The notes under the pieces were generated by a model, which saw nothing but the letters and a program-made list of their open reading frames with translations, did no database searches and was not told the origin of the DNA. From Bacteroidales bacterium UBA5072 (GTDB taxonomy: Bacteria; Bacteroidota; Bacteroidia; Bacteroidales; UBA10428): a stretch of DNA of 64,000 nt. The stretch lies in contig DIAS01000056.1 of NCBI GenBank assembly GCA_002415855.1, positions 2,274-66,273 on the forward strand, given 5' to 3'. The position numbers and the translations under genes were made by a program. Below, piece by piece: positions 1 through 32,656 of the stretch; within the stretch, counting starts at the first letter, position 1; the number at the start of each line of letters is the position of its first letter.

Positions 1-224
1 TTTGTGTGAATCCGGCTTTTAAAGAATTGGAAGTAAATCTTCGTAAGGCAGGCCTGAACATTAAGGATATACACGATCTCGAAATTGAAGTGGACAAAAT
101 TACAGGAATACCAAGCCCACTTGAATATACTGATAAAATCGTGGGAATTGTTGAGTATCGTGATGGTACCGTAATCGATGTAATTCATCAGATCGTGGAG
201 AAAAGTGATTATAAACTGTATTGA
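1..224 (+). CDS. 3' end of a gene truncated by the window edge; possibly the C-terminus of citrate lyase alpha subunit (CitF)
   Basis: The frame stays open back to nt 3, so the GTG at 6 is probably internal. The tail ...IVEYRDGTVIDVIHQ... resembles what I recall of CitF C-termini. Its TGA stop overlaps the TTG start of the downstream citX/citG fusion (TTGA). The call rests on memory plus synteny only. Confidence 0.4.
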   Translation, partial: CVNPAFKELEVNLRKAGLNIKDIHDLEIEVDKITGIPSPLEYTDKIVGIVEYRDGTVIDVIHQIVEKSDYKLY

Positions 225-5583: not shown

Positions 5584-5919
5584 ATGTCTGCAAAAATGAA
5601 TTTGAGACAGAACAAGTGCAAACCCTGTGAAGGCGGCGTTGCGCCACTGGAAAAATCTGAAATCGGTTCATTCATGGAACAATTGCACGGCGATTGGAAG
5701 ATCGTGGATGAAAACAAGATATCCCGTGAATTTTCCTTTGTGAATTACAGGCACACCATTGACTTTGTGAACCAGGTGGCCGACCTGGCTGAACAGGAAG
5801 GGCATCACCCGGTTTTGCACGTTTATTATGCACGTCTTGTTGTGGAACTTTGGACCCATGCAATAAACGGATTGTCGGAGAACGACTTTATACTGGCAGC
5901 AAAAATCGATGGCATTTGA
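5584..5919 (+). CDS. 4a-hydroxytetrahydrobiopterin (pterin-4a-carbinolamine) dehydratase
   Basis: 111 aa. Motif FVNQVADLAEQEGHHPVLHVYYARLVVELWTH is typical of the PCD/DCoH family. Confidence 0.85.
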   Translation: MSAKMNLRQNKCKPCEGGVAPLEKSEIGSFMEQLHGDWKIVDENKISREFSFVNYRHTIDFVNQVADLAEQEGHHPVLHVYYARLVVELWTHAINGLSENDFILAAKIDGI

Positions 5920-7332: not shown

Positions 7333-8346
7333 ATGGCATTTAAGGATAATTATTCCAAAGGCTGTAAAGCCTGTCAGAATGGTAAATGGTTATGCATTTT
7401 CCTTACTTATCAGTGCAATGCTGCCTGTACATTTTGTCCTGCTCCCTTTAAAAACAGGGATCTTATTAATTCTGCCCTGGGCAATGATCCATCCACCATA
7501 CTGGGATATCTGGAATTATACCCCTTCGAGGGGATTAGTTTTTCAGGAGGAGAATGTTTTATTGTTTATGACAGAATGCTTTCCTGGCTTGATTTTTTTA
7601 AAAAGAATCAGCCACAGTTATACTATTGGGCCTATACCAATGGAATCGATATCAAAAAGGAACAGCTCGTTGATTTAAAAAACGCCGGACTAAACGAATT
7701 GCGTTTTAATATTGCCGCTTCCGGTTATAATGATCCCTTGGTTTTAGAATCCATTGCAGATGCATCAGAAATCTTTGAGCATGTAACGGTTGAAATTCCA
7801 TCCATACCCGATGATTTTGAAAAACTCATTAAGACTATACCTCTGCTGGAGAAAATGCGGGTAGACTATTTAAATCTTCATGAATACCTCCTGGTTGCAG
7901 GTGATCCGAACAGCAAGAATGCTCCGGCAGGGCGGTTCCTTATGAACCTTAGTATGCCTATGGATTATCATCAGAAAAGCTTGCTGAATACTGAGAAAAT
8001 AAGTTCTTTTTGTGCCGAGAATGATTTTAACATAAAAATAAACAACTGTTCGCTCATGAAAAAGGAGCATCAGATGTATGGAAGAAGAATAACCATGGGT
8101 ACGCTGTTTAAAGAAGATCATGAAAAGCTTACGAAGGATGGATTTCTTGAAACAATATTCTCCCCGGGGAGAATTTCTGATGAGGTGGATGAAAACCTAA
8201 GTAACTATCATAGGGCAGATCGGTCATATTTCATTCATCCAGATCACTTTACGAAAACCGGATCCGATGCTTATCTGTTAAAGATTATGCCAAAACTGGG
8301 TGTAAATGACCACCCCAGAGTCATTGAGTACACAAAGCTCACATGA
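7333..8346 (+). CDS. radical SAM protein with no SPASM tail
   Basis: CxxxCxxC motif LTYQCNAACTFCPAP and a GGE motif SFSGGECF. An extra N-terminal Cys pair is present (CKACQNGKWLC). First gene of the plus-strand operon. Confidence 0.75.
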   Translation: MAFKDNYSKGCKACQNGKWLCIFLTYQCNAACTFCPAPFKNRDLINSALGNDPSTILGYLELYPFEGISFSGGECFIVYDRMLSWLDFFKKNQPQLYYWAYTNGIDIKKEQLVDLKNAGLNELRFNIAASGYNDPLVLESIADASEIFEHVTVEIPSIPDDFEKLIKTIPLLEKMRVDYLNLHEYLLVAGDPNSKNAPAGRFLMNLSMPMDYHQKSLLNTEKISSFCAENDFNIKINNCSLMKKEHQMYGRRITMGTLFKEDHEKLTKDGFLETIFSPGRISDEVDENLSNYHRADRSYFIHPDHFTKTGSDAYLLKIMPKLGVNDHPRVIEYTKLT

Positions 8347-9674
8347 ATAATTCTTCAACATCCCACCGGTATGAGATCTCGTTCCCAGGAGGTAGAATTG
8401 TTTATCTTCCGCTGGAAGGCAGGATAATTGACATTACCGGAAAAGGAACAATTGTACTGCCTGACAAACGAAAGATTGGAATTATGATGGATCTCATGGA
8501 AGGCATGGATCCTGTGACAACAGCATTCAAGCCTGTTTGCCTGACAATATACACCAGTCACCAATGCAATCTTCAGTGTCAGTATTGTTATGTGCCGGAC
8601 AAAGAGTTGTATCCGAAAACAATTGTGGCTTCCGCCGCGGTTGATGCAGCTGCCAGGTTTGTGGCCAAAAATTGCCGGGAAAGGAAGCAGCCCTTTATCC
8701 TTGGTTTTCACGGCGGCAACGAACCCCTGATGAACCTGGGAAAAATCGAAGATCTCATTCATATTGCCGAATCTGTTGCGCAGAAAAATGATCTGGAGTT
8801 TTTGCCCTTCTGTACCACCAATGGCGTTATCCCTGAAAAAACGGCCAAATGGGCTGCCGGCATCTTTCACGGAATAACGCTTTCATGGGATGGCCCTCCG
8901 GAAATACACGACAAATACCGAAAGGATAAGTTGGGGAGAAATACCAGCCCCCAGGTCAGAAAAACGGTCGGTATCTTCAGTGATCTGATGGATCCCGGGA
9001 GACTGTCTGTACGCTGTACCATTTCCGGGGCTTCTGTGGAAAGGATGGAAGAATTGGCAGAGTATTTCAACAGGGCCGGCATAAAGCGTGTCGAGTTTTA
9101 TCCGGTTTTTAATGTCCCTGAAAAATCACTCCGGAAGGATTTAATACCTGATCCCGGGAAATTTGCATATAATTTTACTAAGGCCAGGGCTTATGGCGAT
9201 GCAAACGGGATCCAGGTCTGCTTCTCAGGTTCCAGGATCACAGATTATCACGGAAGGTATTGCATGATCCTGCAGGATAACCTGACAATAACTCCGGATG
9301 GTTTTCTGACAAACTGTTTCTTTCATACCCAGAATTATGAAAATGAATATGATCAGTATTTCTATGGCCAATTTCATCCTGAAAAGGGTCAGTTGGTAAT
9401 GCACCGGGAGAAACAGAACAGGATGAAGACAGGTTCCGTTTCCAGGCTCGTCGTGTGTTCGGATTGTTTTAACCAGTTCCACTGTTCGCAGGGATGTCCG
9501 GCAGTGTGTCCATTCGATGAAAACTTCCATGAATCAGACACTCCTGAATGCATCAAGGAAAAATGGCTGGGATTGGCCGCCATCTTGGGAAATGCAGGTT
9601 ATTTGAGAACATTTGACAGTGAAATATCGTTTGTTGAATTTTTTTCCGGTATAACAGTTCATCGATTGTCTTAA
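8343..9674 (+). CDS. radical SAM/SPASM peptide-maturase-like enzyme
   Basis: SHQCNLQCQYCYVP, GFHGGNEPLMN, and a C-terminal twitch/SPASM-like Cys cluster CMILQDNLTITPDGFLTNCF ... CSDCFNQFHCSQGCPAVCP. ATGA overlap with the upstream rSAM gene. Confidence 0.85.
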   Translation: MNNSSTSHRYEISFPGGRIVYLPLEGRIIDITGKGTIVLPDKRKIGIMMDLMEGMDPVTTAFKPVCLTIYTSHQCNLQCQYCYVPDKELYPKTIVASAAVDAAARFVAKNCRERKQPFILGFHGGNEPLMNLGKIEDLIHIAESVAQKNDLEFLPFCTTNGVIPEKTAKWAAGIFHGITLSWDGPPEIHDKYRKDKLGRNTSPQVRKTVGIFSDLMDPGRLSVRCTISGASVERMEELAEYFNRAGIKRVEFYPVFNVPEKSLRKDLIPDPGKFAYNFTKARAYGDANGIQVCFSGSRITDYHGRYCMILQDNLTITPDGFLTNCFFHTQNYENEYDQYFYGQFHPEKGQLVMHREKQNRMKTGSVSRLVVCSDCFNQFHCSQGCPAVCPFDENFHESDTPECIKEKWLGLAAILGNAGYLRTFDSEISFVEFFSGITVHRLS

Positions 9675-9954
9675 TGCAGCAAGGAAATTTTTCATGAGGA
9701 AGCGGTTAGCAGCAGAACCATACTCGGATCAGTACGCTTGATGTGCCACACAGCTTGTTGAATCAATTCGCCACTCCCGGTAGCATCCGTAAATCGCTTC
9801 AGTCAGAACTTGACAAAGTCCCTGATATTTATTACATTTGATCAAAGATGGAAAGAATGGCTATTATTCCGGTATTCATGGAAGAATCGCTGTTCATCAT
9901 TTTTTCCAACTGATGTCACTGACAGGCCAATTTATTTGATAAAGTCATGATCTT

Positions 9955-10401
9955 ATGAAAGAAACACATAACCGTCGTGTATTCCTGCAAATTGTGACAA
10001 AAGGTATCCTTTTAGGAACAATATCTTTTGGCTATTTTAAATTAGGAAAATCGTTTGAATTATCCCCCCCGGGTGATCGGATGAAGGCTCAGATTCCAAA
10101 AATTAATCCGGCCTTCAGGGTGAATGTTTTAAATGACGGTTCGGTCGAATTGTATACGCATAAGCCGGGTGGAGAAAAGGTTATTTATACGTTTGAAGGA
10201 TTTGAGGCAGAAACCCTCTTAACCATTCTTAAGCATGGAGATCCCAGTTTGTACTCACAGGAATTGGGCCTTAAATTTAATATCAGGGAAAATGATTTCA
10301 TTTCTATGGCTGAATCAACATTACGATCAATGGAGAACAAAGGATTTATCTATTATGGTGAAACAATGCTCGTAGAAATAAAGGAAGCAAGAAATGAGTA
10401 A
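9955..10401 (+). CDS. PqqD-like (RRE-like) protein with an N-terminal twin-arginine-like / TM segment
   Basis: Residues ~48-135 (PKINPAFRVNVLNDGSVELY...FEGFEAETLLTILKHGD...LRSMENKGFIY) follow the PqqD beta-strand plus winged-helix pattern. The N-terminus HNRRVFLQIVTKGILLGTISFGYF resembles a Tat signal or membrane anchor. 8-nt overlap with the downstream rSAM gene. Confidence 0.5.
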   Translation: MKETHNRRVFLQIVTKGILLGTISFGYFKLGKSFELSPPGDRMKAQIPKINPAFRVNVLNDGSVELYTHKPGGEKVIYTFEGFEAETLLTILKHGDPSLYSQELGLKFNIRENDFISMAESTLRSMENKGFIYYGETMLVEIKEARNE

Positions 10402-11722
10402 ATCATTCAGGATCTCTAGTGATCTTTTTACAATCCCTCATGAGGGTGATATTTCCATACTCTATGCCCCTAAGTTAGGCTATCTCATCAGAGCGAACAA
10501 GGATGTGATCAATCTGCTGGCTGACTTACCCAAGATCGACAGTGATCTCCTGAATGAAAAACAACGCAAGGTCCTTCAGCACCTGGAAGAACACGGTATA
10601 TTAAACGGTCCCTCCGAACCTGAAACAGGGAAAAACGGACAGGATGCATTTGCTCCTACCAGGGTCACCTTATTTCCCACCAACCAATGCAACCTGAGAT
10701 GCATTTATTGTTATGCTTCGGCAGGTGAACATCCTCCTGTGACAATGAATTGGATCTACGCCGTTTCAGCCATTGAAACGGTTATCAAAAATGCTTTAAA
10801 TACCGGTGATAAAAACATCAGTGTCGGTTTCCACGGGGGCGGCGAACCTTTGCTCCCCTGGAATTTTATAAAAAAGGTCACTGGCTATGTCCAGGAAGAA
10901 TGCAGAAAGAATAATCTGAATGTAAGCATTTATTCGGCTACCAACGGATTGCTGAGTGAGAAACAGCTTGAATGGATCACCGGGCATTTTTCTGATCTCA
11001 ACATCTCCTTTGACGGACTGCCGCATGTTCAGGACTATCACAGGCCACTGCCCAATGGCCGGGGTTCATTTAAATATGTTGACAGGACATTCAGATTTCT
11101 GGACAACAAAGGCTTTAACTATGGGATAAGAAGCACGTTCAGCGATTATAACATCGACCTGATGGAAGAGAGTTACGATTTCATTGTAGCGCATTACCAT
11201 CCAAGAACAATACATTTTGAACCTGTATTTCAATGCGGAAGATGCAAGACCAGCGGGCAATTCGATACAAACCTCGAAAAATTCGCCCGTTATTTCAAAA
11301 AAATAGATGATAAGCATGGGGACAAAAAGGTAAGATTTACCTATTCCGGATGCAGGGTTGAGACCCTGGCCGATTCCTTCTGCGGAGTTGCACGTGATGG
11401 TTTCTCTATCACCCCCGATGGTCATATAACAGCATGTTTCGAAACCACATCCCTGGAAGATCCAAAATCAAGGTATTTCTTTTATGGAAAAATTGATGAA
11501 AACAGGAACATCAACATCGATGAGGAAAAAAGGAATTACCTGCATCATTTAACGGTTGATAACATAAGGTACTGCAAGGATTGTTTTGCAAAATGGCATT
11601 GCGCAGGGGATTGTGCTGCCAAGCTCGGCCACGATGACCTTCATGGTGACCGGGGACATGACCGCTGCCTGCTCAACCGGCGAATGGTTAAGGATAAACT
11701 GGTCAGCATGCTCAGCATATAG
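10394..11722 (+). CDS. radical SAM/SPASM peptide-maturase-like enzyme
   Basis: FPTNQCNLRCIYCYASAG, GFHGGGEPLL, and a SPASM-like tail CGVARDGFSITPDGHITACF ... CKDCFAKWHCAGDCAAK. The N-terminal ~90 aa look RRE-like. Confidence 0.85.
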   Translation: MSKSFRISSDLFTIPHEGDISILYAPKLGYLIRANKDVINLLADLPKIDSDLLNEKQRKVLQHLEEHGILNGPSEPETGKNGQDAFAPTRVTLFPTNQCNLRCIYCYASAGEHPPVTMNWIYAVSAIETVIKNALNTGDKNISVGFHGGGEPLLPWNFIKKVTGYVQEECRKNNLNVSIYSATNGLLSEKQLEWITGHFSDLNISFDGLPHVQDYHRPLPNGRGSFKYVDRTFRFLDNKGFNYGIRSTFSDYNIDLMEESYDFIVAHYHPRTIHFEPVFQCGRCKTSGQFDTNLEKFARYFKKIDDKHGDKKVRFTYSGCRVETLADSFCGVARDGFSITPDGHITACFETTSLEDPKSRYFFYGKIDENRNINIDEEKRNYLHHLTVDNIRYCKDCFAKWHCAGDCAAKLGHDDLHGDRGHDRCLLNRRMVKDKLVSMLSI

Positions 11723-11754
11723 TGCATAGAATTGCTTAATATAACTACTTACTT

Positions 11755-12165
11755 ATGGCCCGGACCAAACCCCCAAACGACAGGTTAAAAGTAACCGACG
11801 GATTGCAAAATGATAATCCGGAGATAAGGGATACCATTAAGCTCAAAGTCCCCGATAAAGAGGTGCACATCATGCAGCCCGAGGAACAGCCTCCTGCAGG
11901 GGGTGGGGGCAGCAGCGGCGGGACCTGCTCCTGCCATTCGGTATGTACCTGTGTGCCGGTAAGCTCGTGTGCCTGTAACATGGTATGCACCTGCGATACC
12001 GTATGCAGCACGGATCTTTGTTCCTGTCATCCCTATTCAGGCTGCACACCGCACACCTGCACGTGTGTCCCGGTATGTTCGTGTGACTCCTATTGCACTA
12101 CTTGCTCCACCTGCTCTACCTGCTCTACCTGTACAACAGGTGGAAGTTACTGGTATCCCTGTTGA
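11755..12165 (+). CDS. Cys-rich putative precursor peptide (56-aa Cys-free leader plus 80-aa core with 22 Cys)
   Basis: Leader ...QPEEQPPAGGGGSSGG is followed by TCSCHSVCTCVPVSSCACNMVCTCDTVCSTDLCSCHPYSGCTPHTCTCVPVCSCDSYCTTCSTCSTCSTCTTGGSYWYPC. It lies 32 nt after an rSAM/SPASM gene. No signal peptide. Confidence 0.65.
   Translation: MARTKPPNDRLKVTDGLQNDNPEIRDTIKLKVPDKEVHIMQPEEQPPAGGGGSSGGTCSCHSVCTCVPVSSCACNMVCTCDTVCSTDLCSCHPYSGCTPHTCTCVPVCSCDSYCTTCSTCSTCSTCTTGGSYWYPC
12094..12132. repeat. 9-nt tandem repeat (tgcWCYacY) encoding C-T-T / C-S-T x3 / C
   Basis: Direct read: tgcactact tgctccacc tgctctacc tgctctacc tgt. Confidence 0.8.
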
Positions 12166-12204
12166 TTCTTGCTTTGATCCTTCAGTTGTAAAATCCAGAA
12201 AACC

Positions 12205-14739
12205 ATGATAACCAAAAGAATCCTGTTGCTTTCGGTGTTTATTTGCTTCCATTGGTGTCTGTTTGCGCAAACACCGGGAACTATGAAATGGGTGTTCACA
12301 ACCGGTAATGATGTTTCATCCTCCCCTGCTATTGGAAGTGATGGGACGATTTATGTAGGTTCAGAGGATAGCAAGTTGTATGCGATAAATCCGAATGGGA
12401 CAAAAAAATGGGAGTTTTTAACCGGGGGGAGTATATATATTTCTTCCCCTTCTGTTGGGATTGACGGAACAATCTATGTTGGTTCCTCTGACAATAAAGT
12501 TTATGCGATAAATCCTGATGGTACAAAAAAATGGGAGTTTACAACCGGGGGAATAATTTATTCTTCACCTGCCGTAGGATTCAATGGAACTGTATATATC
12601 GGTTCCAGTGATTTTAAACTGTATGCTATTAATCCCGATGGAACGGAAAAATGGGAGTTTTCTACAGGAAGTTGGGTGGATTCCTCCCCGGCAATTGGCA
12701 TTGACGGAACAGTTTATATAGGTTCCTGGGATAATACATTGTATGCTGTGAATCCTGATGGTACCAAGAAATGGGAATTCTCTGCCGATAATTGGATTGA
12801 TTCCTCCCCGGCAATAGGGAGTGACGGAACGATCTATGTCGGATCATTTGATAATAAAATATATGCAATAAATCCTGGCGGTACGAAAAAATGGGAGTTC
12901 TCAACTGCCGGAGCTAATAGTTCTTCACCGGCTGTTGGGATTGAAGGTACAATCTATGTTGGTTCCGGGGACGGCAAAATATATGCCATTAACCCTGACG
13001 GCACTAAAAAATGGGAGTTTCTAACCACCGGAGTTGTTAGCTCTTCGCCAGCAATAGGGAAAGACGGTACAATTTTCATTGGCTCATCACTTAATAGAAT
13101 GTACGCACTTAATCCTGATGGCACCAAAAAATGGGAGTTTTCAACCGGATTGGGTTCTTACTCCTCCCCTGCCATTGGAAGTGATGGCACAGTTTACATA
13201 GGTTGTGATGCCAGTTATCTTTATGCCGTTCGCTCGGATTGCGGAGGCCTGGCCGAAAGCTGCTGGCCTAAATTCAGAAAAAACATTGTGAACAATGGCA
13301 GTGCAGCCGCTGCTATTTATGCTGATACCAGGTTTTATGCAAAATTTACAAATGCTGCATCTCTTTCATTTGAAACCGATTTTTATAAAATACCGGGCAA
13401 ACCTGTTATCATTACCGGGATAAAATTGAGTAACAGCAATCTGTCAGCTGGATTATCGTTACCATATACACTCAATGCGGATAATACCGAATTCTTCATA
13501 CCACTCAACATGTCCAATCCACATACCGGCCTATGTGCGACGGCTATTGAACTTCAGTACCTTTATGACGGTGTTGCAATGACCAGTACGGACTACCTGG
13601 ATCTGGCCGTAATTGTTGATGACCACACGGAATTAAGCGTGGTCGGTAAAAGTGCCGTTGAGGCTTACCAGGCTTCCCTGGATGTTAATCCGATTGCAGT
13701 TGTGAATAACAAAGGCGTGATCTACAGGTTGCTGGATGAACCTGAAAAAGCCAAACCGCTCTTTAATACTGCCGTTAGTCTTGCCCTTGGGGAGTTTTAC
13801 GGATTTACCGGCATCAAAATGAATCAGGGGGTGGTCATGTCTGATCTTGGTTATAATGCGGACGCTGTGGGTTATTATGCCAACACCCTGGCGGATCTGA
13901 CAGGAGTGGAATCATCATCGGTTTTAGCGCCCCAGGTGTATTACAACCAGGCCTGGGAATATTATAATTCTGAAAGTTTTAATGACACAAAGACCAAAGC
14001 CCTCCAGACCATCAATCACCCGAAAGCAAACAACTTTCTCAAAGCGAAAGCCTATGTTTTATTAGGTTTATGCGATGCAGCCCTGGAAGATACCGCAACA
14101 GCCATTGATCACCTGCAGGATGCCGTTGATCTTGATCCTGCTTCCTGTATCGCAGAAATCGCAAAGGAGGACATTTGCATCCTGAGCACTGACCAGTATG
14201 AAAGAATATCCATTTGTGAAGGTGAAAGTTATGCGGGACTTACCGAATCCGGACAATACCTGCGCAAACTGGGATCAGGGACCGGCAGCACCAGTTATGT
14301 AATTACCATCCTGACGGTAAATCCGAAATATGACATTGCTATTGACACCACGATCTGTGAAGGGCAGAGCTATAACGGGTGGACCACAACCGGTGAGTAT
14401 GTGCAGAACCTGACTTCATCATGTGGTTGTGATAGCACAGTCACAACGTTGCTCACAGTGAAGGATTGTTCTTCTGGTATTGAACAAATGCAAAACATTA
14501 CATTTATCATTTATCCGAACCCAAGCAACGGTGATATTACAATAATGATCCCGGATAAATCTGCCGGTTCGCTTTTCATTGAGATCCAGGATATGACAGG
14601 TAACATTGTATTCAGCAACATGTTGCATTGTACAGAAAGCACTTGCAGGATTCATCTTGATCATATGCCGGCCGGAGTGTACTTTATTTCTGTTGAAAGC
14701 AGGGGAAAGAGGACTACCAAGAAAGTGATGATCTATTGA
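12205..14739 (+). CDS. secreted 8-bladed PQQ-like beta-propeller protein with TPR-like middle region and T9SS C-terminal sorting domain
   Basis: Signal peptide, then eight ~40-aa repeats (GTKKWEF.T.G.I.SSPAIG.DGTIYVGS.D.KLYAINPD). Two CEG.SY.G...G.Y...L....GCDS repeats follow. C-terminal IYPNPSNGDITI...GVYFISVES...KKVMIY is a Por/T9SS CTD. Confidence 0.8.
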   Translation: MITKRILLLSVFICFHWCLFAQTPGTMKWVFTTGNDVSSSPAIGSDGTIYVGSEDSKLYAINPNGTKKWEFLTGGSIYISSPSVGIDGTIYVGSSDNKVYAINPDGTKKWEFTTGGIIYSSPAVGFNGTVYIGSSDFKLYAINPDGTEKWEFSTGSWVDSSPAIGIDGTVYIGSWDNTLYAVNPDGTKKWEFSADNWIDSSPAIGSDGTIYVGSFDNKIYAINPGGTKKWEFSTAGANSSSPAVGIEGTIYVGSGDGKIYAINPDGTKKWEFLTTGVVSSSPAIGKDGTIFIGSSLNRMYALNPDGTKKWEFSTGLGSYSSPAIGSDGTVYIGCDASYLYAVRSDCGGLAESCWPKFRKNIVNNGSAAAAIYADTRFYAKFTNAASLSFETDFYKIPGKPVIITGIKLSNSNLSAGLSLPYTLNADNTEFFIPLNMSNPHTGLCATAIELQYLYDGVAMTSTDYLDLAVIVDDHTELSVVGKSAVEAYQASLDVNPIAVVNNKGVIYRLLDEPEKAKPLFNTAVSLALGEFYGFTGIKMNQGVVMSDLGYNADAVGYYANTLADLTGVESSSVLAPQVYYNQAWEYYNSESFNDTKTKALQTINHPKANNFLKAKAYVLLGLCDAALEDTATAIDHLQDAVDLDPASCIAEIAKEDICILSTDQYERISICEGESYAGLTESGQYLRKLGSGTGSTSYVITILTVNPKYDIAIDTTICEGQSYNGWTTTGEYVQNLTSSCGCDSTVTTLLTVKDCSSGIEQMQNITFIIYPNPSNGDITIMIPDKSAGSLFIEIQDMTGNIVFSNMLHCTESTCRIHLDHMPAGVYFISVESRGKRTTKKVMIY
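12283..13230. repeat. eight tandem ~120-nt coding repeats (propeller blades)
   Basis: The atgggagtt(t/c) (KWEF) landmark recurs at 12408, 12531, 12651, 12771, 12891, 13011 and 13131. Confidence 0.85.
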
Positions 14740-14776
14740 ACATCGCCCTGCAAGGATATATTTATTTTTCATTGGC

Positions 14777-15862
14777 TCAGGCAAATAAAATCCCTGCCTT
14801 ATGCATAATCACTGAAATATTGATATGATTCGGGCATCTTTCTTCGCAACTTTCACAGGCAATGCAGCAATCAGCCGTTACATCAAGCATGTGGTAATCC
14901 CGCTGAAAGAAGTTTTTCCCCTTGACCATATTGAATTGATTCCATAGGCCGATTACTTTTGGAATATCAATACCCTGCGGACAGGGTAAACAATAATTGC
15001 AGCCTGTACAAAGAACAAGCCTTTCATCTCTTTCCTGCGCGACCATTTCATTAATGAACGCAGTATCAATAGGGGAAAATCTCTCCCCTCCTTCGATTTG
15101 GATGTTGCTGTCAATTTCTGATTTTGTCTGCATTCCCGAAAGGACACAATGAACATGTGGATTGGAATACGCAAATTTTAAAGCAATTGCCGGGATGGTT
15201 GCATGGAAATATTCTCTAAGCCTGGGAAAATCCACAAACGAATCTGTAAGTACTCCCCCGGCCAGCGGATTCATAACGATCACTCCCAATCCTCTGTTGT
15301 ATGCATATTGAATGGCATCTTCATAGGTACGATTGAGCATATTGTATGAAAGTATAACTGCATCAAAAGGTCCCGCATCAATAAGCTTTATAATGTTTCC
15401 GGGAGTGTCATGACTGCTGAATCCCAGGTACCTGATCAGACCATCTCTTCTGGCCCGGTGAACCTGTTCGATGATCCCTTCTGCCAGAAAATGCTTCTCC
15501 CATGACTTGTATTCCAAATAATGGATGAAATAAAAATCCAGTGCTTCCCTATTATAAAGATGCAGTGTATTTTTCAGTTGCGCTGTCCAGTTTCCAGGAT
15601 CAGACAGATGGGTCGTGTTTTTGCCGCTTAAAATGACTGCTGGTTTCTGGTCATTTATTGCCAGACCAAAGACTTTTTCACATTGAAAATGACAATAGAA
15701 GGTCCCGATATCGAAAAAGTTGATTCCAGTCTTTAAGGCATAATGCATTAAAGATATGGCTTCTGTAAAATCAATTGATTGCGGTGCAATGGGCAGCCTC
15801 ATCGCCCCAAACCCAAGTGCAGAAATATAAAAGTCAGTATTTCCAAATTTTTTATAATCCAT
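14777..15862 (-). CDS. aldo/keto reductase with C-terminal 4Fe-4S ferredoxin-type domain
   Basis: AKR N-terminus (ISALGFGAMRLP). C-terminal CTGCNYCLPCPQGIDIP ... CIACESCEERCP. The start overlaps the stop of the 1121-aa gene by 11 nt. Confidence 0.8.
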   Translation of the reverse strand: MDYKKFGNTDFYISALGFGAMRLPIAPQSIDFTEAISLMHYALKTGINFFDIGTFYCHFQCEKVFGLAINDQKPAVILSGKNTTHLSDPGNWTAQLKNTLHLYNREALDFYFIHYLEYKSWEKHFLAEGIIEQVHRARRDGLIRYLGFSSHDTPGNIIKLIDAGPFDAVILSYNMLNRTYEDAIQYAYNRGLGVIVMNPLAGGVLTDSFVDFPRLREYFHATIPAIALKFAYSNPHVHCVLSGMQTKSEIDSNIQIEGGERFSPIDTAFINEMVAQERDERLVLCTGCNYCLPCPQGIDIPKVIGLWNQFNMVKGKNFFQRDYHMLDVTADCCIACESCEERCPNHINISVIMHKAGILFA

Positions 15863-18800
15863 ACTGCATCAATTCTTCCACCATTTTTGAAATATGCCAT
15901 GATCCGGAACCGGTAAGCCGGAATTCACTATCCGATTTCTCAATAAGGTCATAACTCAACCACTTTTCAAAGAGTGTCTCCATTTTAAAGTAGGTGACAT
16001 CACTCTCCGGAACGATACCACCGATCAGTCGTGCTTTAATCAAACGTCGTTCCAGTTCCCTGGGCTTAAGATATCCACCACCCTGCAGTGGAGGAGAAAT
16101 CATTTGTTTATGAGACAGATACTCTTCAATCCACTGATGTACATAGTAGTAGTCATCAAAAATACCATCTGCCGTCGGACCCAGGGCCAGCAAATCTTCA
16201 TTCCGGCATACATGATTGTAATACAGGTTTCTATCCTCTTTCTTGGCATAATGTACAAAATGATTCTTCTTATACCCCGATCGGATGAGATATTGGTCTG
16301 CCAGTTGAAAAAGAAAATAATCATAAACCGGTGATCTTTTAAAACCTCCAATATTAGCAAAGAAAGCCTTGTTCTTATCGGTGATGTTCAATTGATACAG
16401 GGAGAAACCGTGTATTCCGGATTTGCATAACTCAGCCAACGTATGTAACAATGATCCCGCATGCTGAAAAGGAAGGCCGTAGAGTACATCAACGGAAACT
16501 ACAAAACCCATTTTCATGGCGTCCTCAAGTTTTAATAATACCTCCCGGGCCGTTTCTTTTCGGCCCAAAATCTTCCTGATTGGATCATCCAGGGTTTGAA
16601 CCCCAACCAGTAACCTGCGAAATCCTGCTTCAGACAATATCCTAAGCTGTTCCCCGGAAAGCAAGCTGGTTGTGGACTCCAGCGCTATTTCAGTGGTGTC
16701 GGTGATTTTCAATCCCTTTCTCAAACGATCGGTTAAAGCATGGAGTTTTTCCGGCGGCAAATAGCCAGGAGTCCCTCCGCCAAAATGAATGCTTGTTACC
16801 GGCCTTTCGGTGATATTGGAATTTTGCGTCCACAATGCTATCTCTGAAAGCAGAAGCCTCGTAAATTCGGATATTTTTTCAGCGTTTCTTTCAGGAACGG
16901 CCATGGAATAACAATCACAAAAGTTACACTTCCTGTCGCAAAAAGGAACATGCACATATAACGAATAAGGACTGGAAACTGGTTTTGAGATCTTCTCCTG
17001 AAGGACCTTCCAGCACTTATCCGGGCCATGGAGTAATCCGTTTTCCAGCCATTCAGGTGAAGGCATGGTTTTCAATCTGTTGTGGTAATCTCCGGGGACC
17101 TTTTCCCATTGCTGCTGTATCCTGTCAAAATCCGTTTCAGGCGGGATCTGATGTTCAATCCGTTGAATAACCCTTTCGAACTTATCCGTATTCTTCTTCT
17201 TTTTTCTCAGAATCTGCTGACTTTTCTTGCCGGAAGCTGCTGTCATTTTTTTCTCCCAATAGACCCGGCAATAATTACAGGAAAAGCAATTATGATCACA
17301 ATACAAAGTGTGCTTAAAGAACGCCTGGTCAATATCAATAGACTCGTTTACGGAAGCAGGTCCTCCGCCGATCTCATTTGGGCTCAGGTCTTTTCCCTTA
17401 AAGTAATGCGTAAGGACTTTCAGGTAATTATCCGGGTTTCTCAGTGTACTCCTGCCTGCGAGCTTCAGGTCATCATATAATCCATCATACAGGTCAAGGA
17501 ATTGTGGCAATATCCATGCACCGGTCAGACGAAGCCAGGGATGCCGGAAAAGCAGCTCCCGGCAAAGTGACTCAGGATGTCTAATACCTGGTGATCCCAT
17601 TTCATAAAAATGCTGTATCCGGTGAACGCAACCAGGTAGACAGGCCTCATTAACGAGCAGACGAATTTCACCCTGGAAGCATTTTCTGATTTGGTTCAAT
17701 ACTGCTATATTTCTCAGGATCTTTCCGGAAGGAACGACAGTGTCAAACAATCCTTCCAGCATGATTAACTGGGAAGATGATGCAATATCCATCAAGGTGG
17801 AAGCCGTAAGGGATATTTCAGGAAATTCCTTTCTGATCAATCGTGCCAGATCAACATTTGACAAGGTAATTTCCCGGATTTCAGTTTTTTTGATGATCTT
17901 TTCAATTTGCTGAATAATTGAAGGTCCGATTTTTTCAACCTTATCAGGTAAAACGATAGGATTGATGATCAGGTTCTTTTTGCACTTTGTTTCTTCCAGG
18001 AAAGATGCCAGATGTATCATCGGTTGAACCGGACGTCCTGAAGGTATTGTAGTGTCTGGCAAAGGAAAATAAATACCACGAATGCTTTCCCCATGAACGG
18101 AATTGAGTTTTTCCCAGAATTCTGGCGGTTGGTCAATATAGGGAATGGTGTATTTTGAGGCGACTGCATTTTTCTTGCTGCTGTCATTGACCGTCCCTCC
18201 CCCTGCTTGAATAATTTCCAAGCCTGATTTGAGATATGCCGTTGACGGAACCGGCTGCCCGTTCTCTATTCTCTTAAACCGGTTCAAAACCTGTGCCCTG
18301 CACCCTCCATAACATTCACCCTTGAGGAAGAGATCACATTTCGTGCAGTGGGGGAAAATCCCGGTCGACCTGAAAGGTTCCATTTTTTTAAGAAATACCT
18401 TTCCTATCTCGCCGGTATCCTGATAATCACTCAGCTTTAACTTTTCAGTGGCATGAAAAAGGGGAAAACACGAAACAACATTTCCATCCGGCAGTATATC
18501 AGGGAGAGGATTACACCTTTTTCCAATGTCTTTATAATGTTCTTCAATCATTTCTTTAAGTTCCTCAGGGAACATACATGGGACAAAACCACAATCGAAA
18601 CTTATCCGAACGTTCTTGCCGGACGCATCCTGAAGAAACCGAGCCAGATGGTTACCTGTAGCCTGATAGAATTTAGGATGAAGATATTGATTGGCAGGTG
18701 GTACAACAGGATGCGCAAGCCCTAGCCTGATATCAGGAGCAAGGTTGTACCTTTCGATCATTGGCAAAACATAGTCCAGATCCTGCCCGGGACGATAGAT

Positions 18801-19217
18801 ATTAATGCCCAGTCCCGCCTTTCTTCCGAGAAATGCAAGTGCCCTTCTCTGAGCCTTTAGATCAGCATGTTCATCGGAAGGATCAATACAATTAATACAA
18901 AATTTTATTCTTTCATCAGGGAATTGATCAATCTCAGCAAGTATATTTTCCTTCATCAATCCATTGGAGAATATGCTGATATTGAATCCCTCATCTAATC
19001 CAAGTCTGATAAGGGAAAGGAATTCAGGATGCAAAGAAGGCTCCCCACCCAGCAGGCGAAGCTCGCTGACACCGGAATTCTTTAAAAATCCCAGAATATG
19101 AAAGAAATTTGAAAGGCTCATGCTGCTTGTTTCAAATGCTCCCGATTTTCTGAATCCTGTAGCGAAGCAATAGGAACAGTTACGATTGCAGGAATCAGTT
19201 ATGATAAGATTTGCCAT
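15852..19217 (-). CDS. three-domain fusion: radical SAM/SPASM-like + peptidase-U32-like + HemN-like radical SAM
   Basis: aa 1-320: ITDSCNRNCSYCFA, LLGGEPSL, CTKCDLFLKGECYGGCRAQ. aa ~355-655: U32-like (EITLSNVDLARLIRKEFPEISLTASTLMDI, LLVNEACLPGCVHR, LKLAGRSTLRNPDNYLKVLTHYFKG, CDHNCFSCNYC). aa ~745-1121: HemN/HemW-like (YVHVPFCDRKCNFCDCY, IHFGGGTP). Confidence 0.8.
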   Translation of the reverse strand: MANLIITDSCNRNCSYCFATGFRKSGAFETSSMSLSNFFHILGFLKNSGVSELRLLGGEPSLHPEFLSLIRLGLDEGFNISIFSNGLMKENILAEIDQFPDERIKFCINCIDPSDEHADLKAQRRALAFLGRKAGLGINIYRPGQDLDYVLPMIERYNLAPDIRLGLAHPVVPPANQYLHPKFYQATGNHLARFLQDASGKNVRISFDCGFVPCMFPEELKEMIEEHYKDIGKRCNPLPDILPDGNVVSCFPLFHATEKLKLSDYQDTGEIGKVFLKKMEPFRSTGIFPHCTKCDLFLKGECYGGCRAQVLNRFKRIENGQPVPSTAYLKSGLEIIQAGGGTVNDSSKKNAVASKYTIPYIDQPPEFWEKLNSVHGESIRGIYFPLPDTTIPSGRPVQPMIHLASFLEETKCKKNLIINPIVLPDKVEKIGPSIIQQIEKIIKKTEIREITLSNVDLARLIRKEFPEISLTASTLMDIASSSQLIMLEGLFDTVVPSGKILRNIAVLNQIRKCFQGEIRLLVNEACLPGCVHRIQHFYEMGSPGIRHPESLCRELLFRHPWLRLTGAWILPQFLDLYDGLYDDLKLAGRSTLRNPDNYLKVLTHYFKGKDLSPNEIGGGPASVNESIDIDQAFFKHTLYCDHNCFSCNYCRVYWEKKMTAASGKKSQQILRKKKKNTDKFERVIQRIEHQIPPETDFDRIQQQWEKVPGDYHNRLKTMPSPEWLENGLLHGPDKCWKVLQEKISKPVSSPYSLYVHVPFCDRKCNFCDCYSMAVPERNAEKISEFTRLLLSEIALWTQNSNITERPVTSIHFGGGTPGYLPPEKLHALTDRLRKGLKITDTTEIALESTTSLLSGEQLRILSEAGFRRLLVGVQTLDDPIRKILGRKETAREVLLKLEDAMKMGFVVSVDVLYGLPFQHAGSLLHTLAELCKSGIHGFSLYQLNITDKNKAFFANIGGFKRSPVYDYFLFQLADQYLIRSGYKKNHFVHYAKKEDRNLYYNHVCRNEDLLALGPTADGIFDDYYYVHQWIEEYLSHKQMISPPLQGGGYLKPRELERRLIKARLIGGIVPESDVTYFKMETLFEKWLSYDLIEKSDSEFRLTGSGSWHISKMVEELMQYGL

Positions 19218-19218
19218 A

Positions 19219-19488
19219 CTATGAGCTTAATAAACTGCTGACGATCCAACTGTCAATATTCTTCAACATCCAGAGCACAGTTTCCGGCTTATCCTTTTTT
19301 AAAATCGGGGCCAGCATATCGGACATTGCGGTAAATGAATAACCCTGCTGGATCATATTCCACAAAGCTGCTTCCGGATATGGAATAACTACCATTTTGT
19401 TCAGATCTCCCGAATAAACCTTGATACAGTTAACTTCAGTCGCATACTCAATCTGCCCGTTCAGGCTATATCTGGTCTTAGGATTCAT
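19219..19488 (-). CDS. PqqD-like (RRE-like) small protein
   Basis: 89 aa. KMVVIPYPEAALWNMIQQGYSFTAMSDMLAPIL...WIVSSLL fits the PqqD pattern. 11-nt overlap with the upstream rSAM gene and a 1-nt gap to the downstream fusion gene. Confidence 0.5.
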   Translation of the reverse strand: MNPKTRYSLNGQIEYATEVNCIKVYSGDLNKMVVIPYPEAALWNMIQQGYSFTAMSDMLAPILKKDKPETVLWMLKNIDSWIVSSLLSS

Positions 19489-20896
19489 GGTTGCTCCAGT
19501 CCGTTAGTTTATCACTGCGCTGCATCGAGAACTTTCTGAGCTGCTGTTCGTCTCCCAAAAAGACTTCGAGAATACCTGGCTGATCGATCTTTCTCATCAT
19601 ATCAATTATTCCCAGAATACGGGTTTGTCTGCAATAATTATCATATACAACAGGTGATCCCGGATAAGTAACATCTACATGACACCCCCCGGCACATATC
19701 CATTTGCAGAAGCATGAAGTGCAACGCGGCTTTTTCTTCACCAGATCGCGTAATCCGGCTATTTTCTCCTGTGAGATGTGCATTCCCCCTGCTTTCATTT
19801 TTCCAACGGACAAATCGAGTCCCCTTTCCTCCCATCTATTCGGTAATAGATAGCAGCTATTGATCTCCCCCTCCGGAGTGACAATAAGTGTATCCTTACC
19901 AACAGGGCAGGAGGAAAATTGAGGTTTTTCCGAAGCAAAGGATGAGTTAAGAACAGTAACGTTATACTTATCAGCTATCTGAAGAGATCGGAGAAATTGT
20001 TCTGCAAACATATATGGATCCGGTTCCAACAGGCCTGCATCTCGCGAGCCTTTATTGGATTTCAGATTCTCAAAATTGATGATCGAAGGCCTAAATGTTC
20101 TGCAAAACCAGTCGGTAATTTCAGGCATTCTGCGAACGCTGACATTACTGATGCATGCTCGCAGGTAGAGTTCAGTGTTGGACTCACTGACAGCCCTGGC
20201 AAATCTCACTGCAGGCTCAAAACTGTCCTGCTTGTTGCGCATTGGCCTTTGTCGGTTCTGAATATCTTCAGGACCATCCAGGGACAGAACCACAGCATTT
20301 ATGTGATCAGTAACAAACCGTGTGATTTTATCAGAAACCAGTCCATTTGTAGATACCTCGAAATAAGGAAGCAGGTCATACTGATCTGCGATCATTCTGG
20401 CATAATGTACAGCAACACTTACAACATCGGGTGCATACAACGGCTCCCCTCCAAAGAAATGAACTTCGAGCTTCTTCTTGTTCAATTGTTTCATTCGGCT
20501 GGCCATCCAATCGATTGCTGCAATTGCCATTTTATAACTCATTTTTTTATTTCTTCTGCCGACATGCTCAAAGTCACAATAATGGCAGGCGCCGTTGCAA
20601 GCTCGGGTCGGGATTAATCCGAGAAAATACGGATCAGGATTGCCTGCGGGTTCACCAGGTAATTCCCTGGTTGATTCCTGTAATGCATTTAAGATAGTAT
20701 CAATTGCTTTTTTCTTAGCCTGGTTTTCCTGCTTCTTTATCAAATAATCATACAGATAGCTTACAGCAGTTTTATCTGTTAATGCAGTTATGGCCTTCAG
20801 TGGTGAATAAATGATAAAATATTCATTTATGGGCAAAACATAGAGTTGTTCAACATCATTAAAATTTTTTGCTTCAATATGAACCAGATTACTCAT
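19478..20896 (-). CDS. radical SAM/SPASM peptide-maturase-like enzyme
   Basis: IPTRACNGACHYCDF, HFFGGEPLY, and a SPASM-like tail FSSCPVGKDTLIVTPEGEINSCY ... CTSCFCKWICAGGCHV ... YCRQTR. The N-terminal ~90 aa look RRE-like. Confidence 0.85.
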   Translation of the reverse strand: MSNLVHIEAKNFNDVEQLYVLPINEYFIIYSPLKAITALTDKTAVSYLYDYLIKKQENQAKKKAIDTILNALQESTRELPGEPAGNPDPYFLGLIPTRACNGACHYCDFEHVGRRNKKMSYKMAIAAIDWMASRMKQLNKKKLEVHFFGGEPLYAPDVVSVAVHYARMIADQYDLLPYFEVSTNGLVSDKITRFVTDHINAVVLSLDGPEDIQNRQRPMRNKQDSFEPAVRFARAVSESNTELYLRACISNVSVRRMPEITDWFCRTFRPSIINFENLKSNKGSRDAGLLEPDPYMFAEQFLRSLQIADKYNVTVLNSSFASEKPQFSSCPVGKDTLIVTPEGEINSCYLLPNRWEERGLDLSVGKMKAGGMHISQEKIAGLRDLVKKKPRCTSCFCKWICAGGCHVDVTYPGSPVVYDNYCRQTRILGIIDMMRKIDQPGILEVFLGDEQQLRKFSMQRSDKLTDWSNHES

Positions 20897-21025: not shown

Positions 21026-22384
21026 CTAAAACACCATCGTGAAAACTGTTTCTTTCTCAGGTATTGAATACACCGATATCGTACCATTATGCAAATGCAT
21101 AATTTGCCTGGATAAACTCAGTCCTATTCCTGATCCTTTTTCCTTTGTGGTAAAAAAAGGAATGAAGATCTGGTCGATCAACTCAGGCGGAATTCCTTTC
21201 CCATTATCCGACACCTGAATGATCACTTTCCCGTTTTCGCTGTGGAATACCTTCAATTTAATGACCTTGTTTATTTTTTCAGTTGCTGAAAGTGACTCCA
21301 TGGAATTCTTGACCAGATTGATCAGTATTTGTTGGATCTGCGATTTATCAGCCGTAAGCTCAATATCTTTCCTGGTAATTTCAGAAATACAATTGATACG
21401 ATTGGTCTGCAATTCTTCACCAAGCAGTATCTCACAGTTAGTCAAGAGTTCCCGTATAGCAAAAGTCGACATGACCGGTTGAGGTAATGCATTAAATGCC
21501 TTGTAATGCTCAACAAAGCTTTTCAGACCCTCACTTCGCTCATGGATAATGGACAGCCCGGAAATTGCTTTTTCACGCATGCGATCCCATTGCTGGCTTG
21601 ATATAGCACTGTCACCTGTATCTTTCCCCGAAAAATAACTGCTTAGTGTAGCAGTAGTGGAAATAATCGGTGCAAGAGAATTCATGATCTCGTGGTTCAG
21701 TATCCGTATCAGTTTTTGCCAGGATTCGAGTTCTTTCCTGTCAAGTTCATGTCTGATATCCTGAAAGGTAATTATCTTCAGTTCCCTGTCAACGAGTTTC
21801 AGGACTGTGCTGTTTAAGGACAAAGAGACAGTATCATTGCCAGTATTTACCTGAATAAGCCTTTTCTCGGAAGGTCTGATAGCATGAAGGATATCACCTA
21901 AGCCTTTCTGATGATTATTAAGCTTATCAATCTTGTGTATTGTTTTTATTCCCAGTAAATTTTTGGCAGCCTTGTTGATGATGTCCACCTTACCATCCGG
22001 CCCAAATGAAATAAGTCCGGTTTGGATGCTTTCAACTATCGTTTTAAAGTATTGATCTTGTATGGCATATTTAATTCTGATGGATTTAATCAGCGTATTT
22101 ACATCATCCATGGATTTATAAATATTACGGAACTTTCTTTTACTCCTGTTAAAAGATAAACCTGAATCCTCGTTCTTTATGGAATCAAAAAATCCGGCAA
22201 GATCACGGTTGGTTTTGTTCACATAATAAATGAAAAGAATTGCCTGGAGAACAATCAACAAGCTTAAATTAACCAAGGAGAAATAGTTGCCTGAACCATA
22301 CCAGGTAAAAGCAAATATCATGCAGTTGGCAGTCAGGAGCAACACACGGACAACTACATTCACATAAAAGTGAAGATTAACCAT
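21026..22384 (-). CDS. sensor histidine kinase (2 TM, PAS, HisKA, HATPase)
   Basis: H-box LNHEIMNSLAPI, N/G boxes NLVKNSMES ... DNGKGIP ... GSGIGLSLSRQI. Confidence 0.85.
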   Translation of the reverse strand: MVNLHFYVNVVVRVLLLTANCMIFAFTWYGSGNYFSLVNLSLLIVLQAILFIYYVNKTNRDLAGFFDSIKNEDSGLSFNRSKRKFRNIYKSMDDVNTLIKSIRIKYAIQDQYFKTIVESIQTGLISFGPDGKVDIINKAAKNLLGIKTIHKIDKLNNHQKGLGDILHAIRPSEKRLIQVNTGNDTVSLSLNSTVLKLVDRELKIITFQDIRHELDRKELESWQKLIRILNHEIMNSLAPIISTTATLSSYFSGKDTGDSAISSQQWDRMREKAISGLSIIHERSEGLKSFVEHYKAFNALPQPVMSTFAIRELLTNCEILLGEELQTNRINCISEITRKDIELTADKSQIQQILINLVKNSMESLSATEKINKVIKLKVFHSENGKVIIQVSDNGKGIPPELIDQIFIPFFTTKEKGSGIGLSLSRQIMHLHNGTISVYSIPEKETVFTMVF

Positions 22385-22411
22385 GGTTCATGGATTAAGG
22401 TGGATAAAAAA

Positions 22412-29099: not shown

Positions 29100-29222
29100 A
29101 TGTATGGAACTTCTGAAACAGGTTAAAGAAAGTGTCCAATTATTTTACACATTGTGGTGATTATTTTACAGTTTTTACAGAGGCAATTTCATAAGTGGTT
29201 ACCTGTGAAACAAATACATATG

Positions 29223-29237
29223 TGGCATCGAATTTGA
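29223..29237 (+). promoter_or_regulatory. candidate sigma-54 promoter (-24/-12)
   Basis: TGGCAT-cgaat-TTGA, 24 nt upstream of the ATG at 29261. Same form as the element at 23929. A direct repeat ATTATTTTACA x2 (29139-29149 and 29160-29170) lies upstream. Confidence 0.5.
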
Positions 29238-29260
29238 CCTTTTTGCTAAAAACTTGCAGC

Positions 29261-32606: not shown

Positions 32607-32656
32607 TGACACATTGCGACACGACTTTAAATAATTAGGCTAATAAACCGGGAACC

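Follow-up and report, generated by a model that had tools for sequence, protein, structure and literature searches.

A radical-SAM/SPASM gene cluster from Bacteroidales with U32-fold and HemN-like domains, proposed to modify the Cys-rich C-terminal tails of ribosomal substrates

We analyzed a 64,000-nt stretch of contig DIAS01000056.1 from Bacteroidales bacterium UBA5072 (hereafter, the window) and focused on a cluster of ten genes arranged in two convergent operons (positions 7333-20896) and rich in radical S-adenosylmethionine (radical-SAM) domains. We propose, with a probability of roughly 0.6, that this cluster encodes a single leader-guided multi-enzyme system that modifies the Cys-rich C-terminal tail of ribosomal substrates before these leave the cytoplasm. 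The initial annotation of the window had suggested one system that resembles the pathways of peptides that are ribosomally synthesized and then modified post-translationally (RiPPs) and lies outside any named class. This suggestion held: none of the ten cluster proteins reaches any curated NCBIfam cut-off, and the two operons are joined by domain fusions in other genomes.

All ten open reading frames (ORFs) of the initial annotation are present where it had placed them. The plus-strand operon begins with gene A (7333-8346), which encodes a 337-aa radical-SAM protein with the motif CNAACTFC and an extra N-terminal CxxC...C, and B (8343-9674), which encodes a radical-SAM/SPASM enzyme. A non-coding gap of 280 nt (9675-9954) separates B from C (9955-10401), in whose 148-aa product an N-terminal RRxFL motif and a hydrophobic stretch precede a C-terminal PqqD-like domain. 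Then follow D (10394-11722), a radical-SAM/SPASM enzyme paired with E; E (11755-12165), a 136-aa precursor with 22 Cys; and F (12205-14739), in which a Sec signal, a pyrroloquinoline quinone (PQQ)-like beta-propeller, tetratricopeptide repeats and a C-terminal domain of the type IX secretion system (T9SS) are combined. The minus-strand operon starts with J (19478-20896), another radical-SAM/SPASM enzyme, and continues with I (19219-19488), an 89-aa PqqD-like leader-recognition protein, and H (15852-19217). The 1121-aa product of H comprises the radical-SAM/SPASM domain H1 (residues 1-335; 18213-19217), the predicted U32-fold domain H2 (residues ~355-660; 17238-18155) and the HemN/ChuW-like radical-SAM domain H3 (residues ~732-1121; 15852-17024). 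The last gene, G (14777-15862), encodes an aldo-keto reductase fused to a 2x[4Fe-4S] ferredoxin-like domain. The genes are tightly packed, with overlaps of 4, 8, 11 and 11 nt and gaps of 1, 32, 37 and 39 nt, the 280-nt gap being the single larger one, and six radical-SAM domains are present, both as initially annotated. The motif CX3CX2C was found in A, B, D, J and at residues 10-17 and ~758-765 of H, and the gathering score of the Pfam Radical_SAM model is exceeded in A, B, D, J and two stretches of H.

GTDB species genomes were scanned with a profile of the N-terminal part of H, 133 genomic stretches were confirmed, and the best 80 loci, all from metagenome-assembled genomes (MAGs), were kept; here and below, loci are denoted by L and a number. 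Window proteins were compared by BLAST with the six-frame ORFs of these 80 loci, component co-occurrence was counted in the 46 loci of at least 18 kb, and family membership was judged by Pfam gathering scores and NCBIfam curated cut-offs. The 80 loci come from about ten phyla of anaerobes, with representatives in Acidobacteriota, Desulfobacterota, Chloroflexota, Planctomycetota, Bacteroidales, Coriobacteriia, Armatimonadota, KSB1, Vecturithrix and others. The recurrent set consists of a D-like SPASM enzyme, J, a small protein upstream of H1, H1, H2, a B-H3 fusion and, often, A. H2 was found in all 46 large loci, H1 and J in 45 each, the D-like enzyme in 41, B in 39 and H3 in 35. A substrate-type protein is encoded in 40 of the 46, which answers the concern of the initial annotation that homologous clusters might lack a Cys-rich ORF. 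Full-length relatives of H are 50-66% identical to the window protein, and the first ~650 residues of H form a conserved stand-alone family (50% mean column identity) represented in many phyla. The contig with the relative at 66% identity has the same gene order as the window, with a 127-aa ORF in the place of E, and L001 (53% identity) contains all components in a rearranged order, together with two Cys-rich ORFs. As judged by sequence comparison, the gene arrangement is non-random, because it is syntenic in relatives at 53-66% identity and because the component set recurs in the 80 loci. In one Bacteroidales MAG (L039), the whole cluster is broken into many short ORF fragments in successive frames, which looks like the result of frameshift errors in the assembly rather than real pseudogenes.

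Domain fusions connect the two operons. In most loci and most other phyla, B is fused to H3, with B in the N-terminal position, in proteins of 840-1045 aa, whereas in the window B belongs to the plus-strand operon and H3 to the minus-strand operon; this fusion is therefore direct evidence for joint action of the convergent operons. Furthermore, H1, H2, B and H3 are fused in proteins of about 1550 aa in L002 and L016; H1, H2 and H3 are fused in the window, L001, L008 and L039; and the fusion of H1 with H2 is a further lineage-specific pattern. On the evidence of these sequences, the two operons are one system.

Among the enzymes of the cluster, B, D and J are nearest to the PapB ranthipeptide and SCIFF maturases along their whole length, with 98-141 bits against NCBIfam cut-offs of 340-425, and the PapB and ScfB profiles are covered end to end by all three. 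Against PapB (cut-off 340), B scores 98 bits, J 120 bits and D 141 bits, the last being the best maturase score of the cluster, also in proportion to the cut-off, with positions 5-318 of the 330 profile positions covered. The families of anaerobic sulfatase-maturating enzymes (anSME; 60-71 bits, cut-off 349), QhpD (TIGR03906; 63-85 bits, cut-off 453), HxsB and the cyclophane enzymes all score below PapB and SCIFF for B, D and J. The initial annotation had considered that the radical-SAM proteins might fall inside characterized non-RiPP families; by NCBIfam, they lie outside the anSME and cofactor families. The H1 profile matches SkfB, PqqE (6-312), SuiB and anSME in the PDB through the SPASM length, and H1 contains the invariant C10/14/17 and eight further invariant Cys. 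Protein A is recognized by Pfam Radical_SAM (36.8 bits), its best NCBIfam match being HxsC (39.8 bits, cut-off 268), and both A and H1 show a weak likeness to MoaA/viperin in NCBIfam. Homologues of A were found in 21 of the 80 loci, often adjoining H2 or B.

As for the U32-like chemistry named in the initial annotation, the fold of H2 was supported by modeling, its Pfam score is sub-threshold, and the activity is proposed by analogy. The AlphaFold2 (AF2) model of H residues 335-700, for which 53 homologues were used, has a predicted local distance difference test (pLDDT) score of 91. Its top Foldseek match is the U32 peptidase Mk0906 (5d88; E = 2.2e-9; target template modeling score, 0.69), followed, five orders of magnitude behind, by generic TIM barrels with E-values of 2e-4 or weaker. 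Thus modeled, H2 has the U32 fold; it scores 17.1 bits against Pfam U32 (PF01136), under the gathering score of 22.4, and one homologue (P0111) has a precomputed match to the same family. Seven Cys are invariant in the H2 region (C526, C530, C552 and C640/644/647/650). The U32 family includes the Fe-S proteins UbiU/UbiV, TrhP and RlhA, which have been implicated in an O2-independent hydroxylation of aromatic rings that depends on prephenate (PMC10990095, PMC6747719).

The HemN-like domain forms the C-terminal third of H. H3 matches HutW/ChuW with 204 bits (E = 3.5e-60; cut-off 400), ahead of HemW (130 bits, cut-off 205) and HemN (123 bits, cut-off 325), and H residues 742-996 match HemN (1olt; 1.9e-24) and the radical-SAM methyltransferase NocN (7.6e-18) in the PDB. 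Its motif, CDRKCNFCDC, has the form CX3CX2CXC. In G, Pfam recognizes Aldo_ket_red (110 bits) and Fer4_9; homologues of G were found exclusively in Bacteroidales-type loci (L001, L008, L039, L095 and L101), and G is a lineage-specific accessory protein that possibly supplies electrons.

The two PqqD-like proteins of the initial annotation, C and I, were confirmed at the level of family profiles, whereas neither window protein matched the Pfam or NCBIfam PqqD models when scanned directly. A hidden Markov model seeded with I detected the I family in ~69 loci, immediately upstream of H1 and ending at the start of H1. The cleaned I-family profile, with window I as its first row, matches along the full length the lasso peptide RiPP recognition element (RRE) proteins TfuB1 (5.5e-6) and TbiB1 (9.9e-6), and two members of the family match Pfam PqqD just under the threshold. 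A second family, C2, comprises proteins of ~150 aa with an invariant N-terminal RRxFF and a C-terminal domain, and is present in 51 loci. C aligns with C2 end to end, with the RR invariant, and hhalign gave probabilities of 92% for C with C2 and 88% for C2 with I. For the C-terminal domain of the C/C2 profile, the top PDB matches are PqqD (3g2b; E = 0.017) and TfuB1 (E = 0.034), both with marginal E-values. Additionally, the C homologue of Desulfonema limicola scores 28 bits against TIGR01409, the model of the twin-arginine translocation (Tat) signal. The RRxF(F/L) motif at the start of all C and C2 proteins resembles the Tat motif of the substrates described below; it is followed by an acidic amphipathic stretch in C2, which has no signal h-region, and by a hydrophobic stretch in C, where the motif reads RRVFL in the window. 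It could reflect signal mimicry or Tat hitch-hiking. In L048 (4895-5701), the PqqD-like module is duplicated in tandem within the C2 protein.

A search for CxC-rich ORFs showed that between one and four proteins with terminal repeats such as VCTCDTVCTCDTVCSCVG, followed by a strictly C-terminal motif with the consensus [H/T]YW[Y/R/H]P[N/T/C/S], are encoded in nearly every locus. Among 94 non-redundant proteins with the terminal motif, HYWYPN was found in 34, TYWYPN in 12, HYWRPN in 11 and HYWYPT in 11, the rest being close variants. The repeat unit is a hexad, [V/T/I]-C-[T/S]-C-[D/N/V]-[T/G/S]-[V/I]; the six-residue period is dominant, with 176 successive intervals between CxC units having a spacing of 6. 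Most substrates are proteins of 450-550 aa, in which ExP[E/Q][V/I][Y/F] is followed by RRxF[L/I/V] with an uncharged stretch, a WD40 or other passenger domain, TLPCGSPIPPGAVCTCNCV, the hexads and the terminal motif. ExPEVY stands 18 residues ahead of RRxF in 53 of the 94 substrates, 75 have at least 12 uncharged residues in a row after RRxF, and a lipobox-like Cys is present in 36 of these. All three proteins tested with TIGR01409, one C homologue and two short substrates, scored above its cut-off. The short forms (120-190 aa) consist of the leader, the signal and the tail alone. Two to four long-form substrate genes stand in tandem in L013, L014, L022, L052, L053, L136, L140 and L142. Clustering of all ORFs of the 80 loci revealed no conserved protease, exporter or any other conserved family, the extra ORF clusters being antisense shadows of conserved genes, which is consistent with Tat export and processing by signal peptidase.

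The window itself contains one long-form substrate, S (46832-48232, plus strand; 466 aa), which was found by a motif scan 26 kb away from the cluster, as an orphan among unrelated genes. S combines the leader EKPQIY, a Tat-like SRKEFLG (an RK variant) with an h-region, seven WD40 repeats recognized by Pfam, TLPCGAPIPAGATCICDCI, three CxC[D/N] units and the end TYWYPN, and is 42-48% identical to substrates in L050, L052 and L053.

The Cys-rich ORF of the cluster, E, is a short and rarer form of substrate. Its 54-aa leader (11755-11916; PNDRLK...VPDKEVHIMQ...GG) precedes a core (11917-12162) in which all 22 Cys lie, arranged in CxC hexads, and which ends in YWYPC; the core has 82 residues, slightly more than the 80 initially given. 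Throughout the E family, the leader PNDRLKK...IKIPDKEVHIMQ contains no signal, the hexads are like those of the other substrates, and the end is YWYP[N/C]. The family comprises 33 clusters at 90% identity, in which both leader and core are conserved, and 41 clusters at 50% identity among 1.8 billion representatives, and it includes dnl_52100 of D. limicola, the genome of which has a stand-alone E module. A direct scan of E against Pfam and NCBIfam gave no match. The AF2 model of E, built with the family alignment, is disordered (pLDDT 41) and offers no structural clue; disorder is usual for precursor peptides.

E-family loci from metagenomes have a stereotyped operon organization. D is directly upstream of E-family genes in L001, L005, L006, L088-L095, L101 and L104, the order (A-)B-D'-C-D-E-F, in which D' is a further radical-SAM/SPASM enzyme, was found in L089, L092, L093 and L104, with A and B at the head of the E operon in L089 and L093, and G, H2 and H3 are convergent to, or near, the E operon in L095 and L101. 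The position of D' is that of the 280-nt gap in the window, and another contig (P0002) has a 269-nt gap at the matching position. The window gap contains no small ORF, no Cys-repeat ORF and no remnant of a substrate gene. To judge from this comparison, the window and the P0002 contig have lost D'. The link to T9SS cargo made in the initial annotation was upheld within Bacteroidota: no long E locus of the Bacteroidota type that was examined lacks an F-like protein after E. An F-like gene comes next after E in the window, the P0002 contig, L001, L006/7, L088, L089, L091-L093, L095, L101 and L104. In F, Pfam Beta-prop_ACSF4, PQQ_2 and Por_Secre_tail are above threshold, and the sorting domain scores 55 bits with PF18962 (cut-off 27) and 42 bits with TIGR04183 (cut-off 23).

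Several further observations concern these operons. In L088, L095, L101 and L104, the F-like gene is followed by the gene of a ~305-aa radical-SAM protein, ~30% identical to H1, that is absent from the window. The metagenome loci L107-L135 encode distant CxC-hexad peptides with an E-like leader (KPNxRLK...ELKKPNxEMHL) and other C-termini (CVPVH, VCVGY, VCYWY), each paired with one D-like radical-SAM/SPASM enzyme; these peptides look like members of a wider superfamily of precursors with hexad repeats. The cluster is adjoined by four paralogous permeases of the MacB/FtsX type (785-811 aa) and an ATP-binding cassette ATPase (24005-26362, 29195-29974 and 30234-37536, plus strand), and a MacB-type permease is also encoded upstream of the E module in L006. 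Such permeases could export E, but genes of this type are abundant in Bacteroidota.

In the proposed mechanism, I (together with H1) and C (together with D; or C2 together with D2, a pair that accompanies long substrates elsewhere) would dock on a motif in the leader, ExPEVY in long substrates and DKEVHIM in E. The PapB/QhpD-like SPASM enzymes would then, by analogy, form thioethers between the hexad Cys and Asp, Asn, Thr or the C-terminal residue. Precedents are PapB, which links Cys to Asp/Glu and also makes C-terminal thioethers (PMC9413430, PMC12373016), and QhpD, which cross-links QhpC by way of a leader (PMC7876137). By similar analogies, H3 might transfer a methyl group and H2, like UbiU/UbiV, might carry out an O2-independent hydroxylation of one of the aromatic residues of HYWYP, with A and G as accessory proteins. 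Tat would export the long substrates in folded form, and the leader would be cut off together with the signal by signal peptidase I or II. In the window, the main substrate would be the short E working with F, so that the E-F pair would be a split analogue of the propeller-tail fusion S. It is conceivable that E hitch-hikes on Tat through the RR motif and hydrophobic stretch of C.

Several points weigh against the proposal of a leader-guided tail-modifying system. The reaction types are only analogies, because every enzyme is far below every curated family cut-off, and which residues H2, H3 and A would target is guesswork. E lacks a signal peptide that would account for its export, and the proposal offers no reason for the invariant RRxFF of C and C2. 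No homologues of the D2/C2 pair were found in the window, and the tail of S lacks the last hexad block (~28 aa) of its orthologues. In L005, L006 and L088, stand-alone D'-C-D-E-F modules have no J, I or H within the available flanks. Finally, all relatives are metagenome-assembled, and no cultured model organism was identified.

An extended version of the proposal, which we consider less likely than not, is that a widespread and hitherto unrecognized anaerobic pathway acts on propeller (lipo)proteins exported by Tat and turns their C-terminal tail into a module braced by thioethers, with a redox center derived from a modified Trp/Tyr. The U32 domain would be a peptide-directed hydroxylase, the first of its kind, fused to a radical-SAM enzyme, and the n-region of the Tat signal would serve as the RiPP leader.

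The alternative that survives best would name the end product of the tail-modifying system, namely a protein-derived redox cofactor or catalytic module on a propeller (WD40 in S, PQQ-like in F), modeled on the cysteine tryptophylquinone (CTQ) gamma subunit of quinohemoprotein amine dehydrogenase (QHNDH) or the tryptophan tryptophylquinone (TTQ) subunit of methylamine dehydrogenase (MADH). The tail would be braced by thioethers, and a Trp or Tyr of HYWYP would be anaerobically hydroxylated and methylated. A propeller is, in most cases, fused to the tail or encoded beside it; the aromatic C-terminal motif is invariant, and the SPASM enzymes are QhpD-like. The hosts are anaerobes, and Tat, the predicted export route, is that of folded or cofactor-bearing proteins. 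QhpG dihydroxylates Trp in QhpC (PMC7876137), and the U32-fold domain could replace this O2-dependent enzyme. We nevertheless regard this identity of the product as doubtful: the middle domain of the substrates is variable or absent, as in the short forms and in Anaerolineae proteins with Pro/Thr linkers and non-propeller domains; the WD40 and PQQ-like propellers are not mutually homologous; the loci have no redox partner, such as a cytochrome, in common; and homologues of QhpA, QhpB, QhpE, QhpF and QhpG are absent.

It is unlikely that the cluster represents two or three independent, ordinary ranthipeptide or sactipeptide clusters that happen to stand side by side, with the U32, HemN-like and aldo-keto reductase proteins as unrelated neighbors. 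This reading would accommodate the C-D-E(-F) modules of L005, L006 and L088 in which J, I and H are out of view, as well as the distant E-like peptides of L107-L135 with their single D-like enzymes. However, it is contradicted by the fusions of B to H3 and of H1 to H2 (and to B with H3) in other phyla, and unrelated neighboring clusters were rejected on these grounds. Furthermore, L089 and L093 have A-B-D'-C-D-E-F in colinear order, G, H2 and H3 are convergent to E-F in L101, the components of the set each occur in 35 to 46 of the 46 large loci, and the tail signature of E is that of the general system's substrates.

The tail might instead be a metal-binding module (metallothionein-like or cluster-binding), or a structural or anchoring one, with its Cys free or in disulfides and the radical-SAM enzymes acting elsewhere or on the terminal motif alone. 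The CxC spacing is indeed metallothionein-like, the tail is a portable C-terminal module on diverse passengers and lipoproteins, and its motif is as strictly C-terminal as a sorting tag. Such a function is nonetheless quite improbable in view of the four distinct peptide-type SPASM enzymes and two RRE-type proteins conserved with the tail, and of the Asp/Asn and Thr/Ser at fixed positions of the hexad, which would suit cross-link acceptors like those of PapA and QhpC; the loci have no conserved sortase-like or metal-handling genes.

A non-peptide pathway (sulfatase maturation, heme or anaerobilin, PQQ or other cofactor metabolism, or lipid modification) is hardly credible, as the likeness to anSME, to ChuW/HemN for H3 and to MoaA/viperin for H1 and A is weak, with all matches far under the cut-offs, no sulfatase, heme, pqqA-C or lipid genes are found nearby, and RRE proteins and gene-encoded substrates are conserved. 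The anSME, PQQ, heme and molybdenum cofactor pathways were rejected on their sub-threshold scores and absent context genes, no sulfatase being detected among the 30 window ORFs scanned against Pfam.

Other genes around the cluster showed no connection to it. The minus-strand operon is flanked by two adjacent gene pairs (21026-23788 and 26378-29099, minus strand), each coding for a histidine kinase with an NtrC-type sigma-54 response regulator, with no link to the cluster seen in other loci. Citrate lyase accessory genes (221-2694, plus strand; a CitX-CitG fusion and citrate lyase ligase) and a pterin-4a-carbinolamine dehydratase gene (5584-5919, plus strand) are unrelated, as is, as far as seen, the gene of a 670-aa protein (3397-5409, minus strand) with a weak, sub-threshold N-terminal match to an FAD-binding family (Pfam DAO). 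A sigma-70 scan for promoters and terminators, which is ill-suited to Bacteroidota promoters, gave counts at the level of shuffled sequences.

If the proposal is true, it adds a large and phylogenetically broad family to radical-SAM peptide and protein maturation, carried by at least 133 species-representative genomes from phyla that include Acidobacteriota, Desulfobacterota, Chloroflexota, Planctomycetota, Bacteroidota and Actinomycetota. Its architecture, with four SPASM enzymes, a SPASM-U32 fusion, a SPASM-HemN fusion and two RRE proteins, is new to the literature searched. The system would give U32 proteins a candidate protein substrate and provide a reconstitutable system for O2-independent hydroxylation. 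Moreover, leader recognition in the style of RiPPs appears to be built into a Tat signal peptide, which would tie post-translational tailoring to folded-protein export. For mass spectrometry, the hexad-repeat tail offers a defined target in the search for new cross-link chemistry.

No description of the system was found in searches of the literature and curated families aimed at it. Its kind is known, being leader-guided radical-SAM/SPASM maturation; its architecture and substrate class are not. The closest comparison is with the ranthipeptide/SCIFF systems (PapB-PapA, ScfB-ScfA), which share full-length PapB/ScfB-like radical-SAM/SPASM enzymes, a Cys-rich substrate with acidic or amide residues at fixed spacing, a PqqD-like leader-recognition element and, in the case of E, the leader-core layout. 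In contrast, the enzymes described here score at one-third to one-half of the curated cut-offs, four SPASM enzymes and two other radical-SAM domains belong to one system, and SPASM enzymes carry fused U32-fold and HemN-like domains. The substrates are mostly (lipo)proteins of 450-550 aa with a predicted Tat signal, presumably modified in the C-terminal tail alone, the core is conserved as much as the leader, and there is no dedicated protease or exporter.

In the biogenesis of QHNDH (QhpC/D/G/E/F), a radical-SAM/SPASM enzyme makes several Cys-to-Asp/Glu thioethers in a leader-held Cys-rich subunit, and the same is proposed here; aromatic hydroxylation, modification in the cytoplasm before export and a product that works with a beta-propeller subunit are further shared elements of the proposal. 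The two differ in that the candidate hydroxylase is a U32 domain rather than a flavoprotein, the predicted export route is Tat, the leader being part of the signal peptide, the hosts are anaerobic and the tail consists of hexad repeats; no subtilisin, dihaem cytochrome or QhpG-type gene is present in the cluster. With the U32 hydroxylases UbiU/UbiV, TrhP and RlhA, H2 shares the TIM-barrel fold of the U32 family, as modeled, and anaerobic hosts, and its invariant Cys could bind Fe-S clusters. Known members act on quinone precursors or RNA, whereas a peptide tail is proposed for H2, which scores below the Pfam threshold. We know of no U32 hydroxylase fused to a radical-SAM/SPASM domain. Finally, H3 resembles the class C radical-SAM methyltransferases (ChuW/HutW, NocN, NosN) in its CX3CX2CXC motif and in being nearest to ChuW/HutW, HemN and NocN; it differs from them in reaching half of the HutW cut-off, in being fused to SPASM enzymes (B or H1-H2) and in its presumed substrate, a peptide tail.

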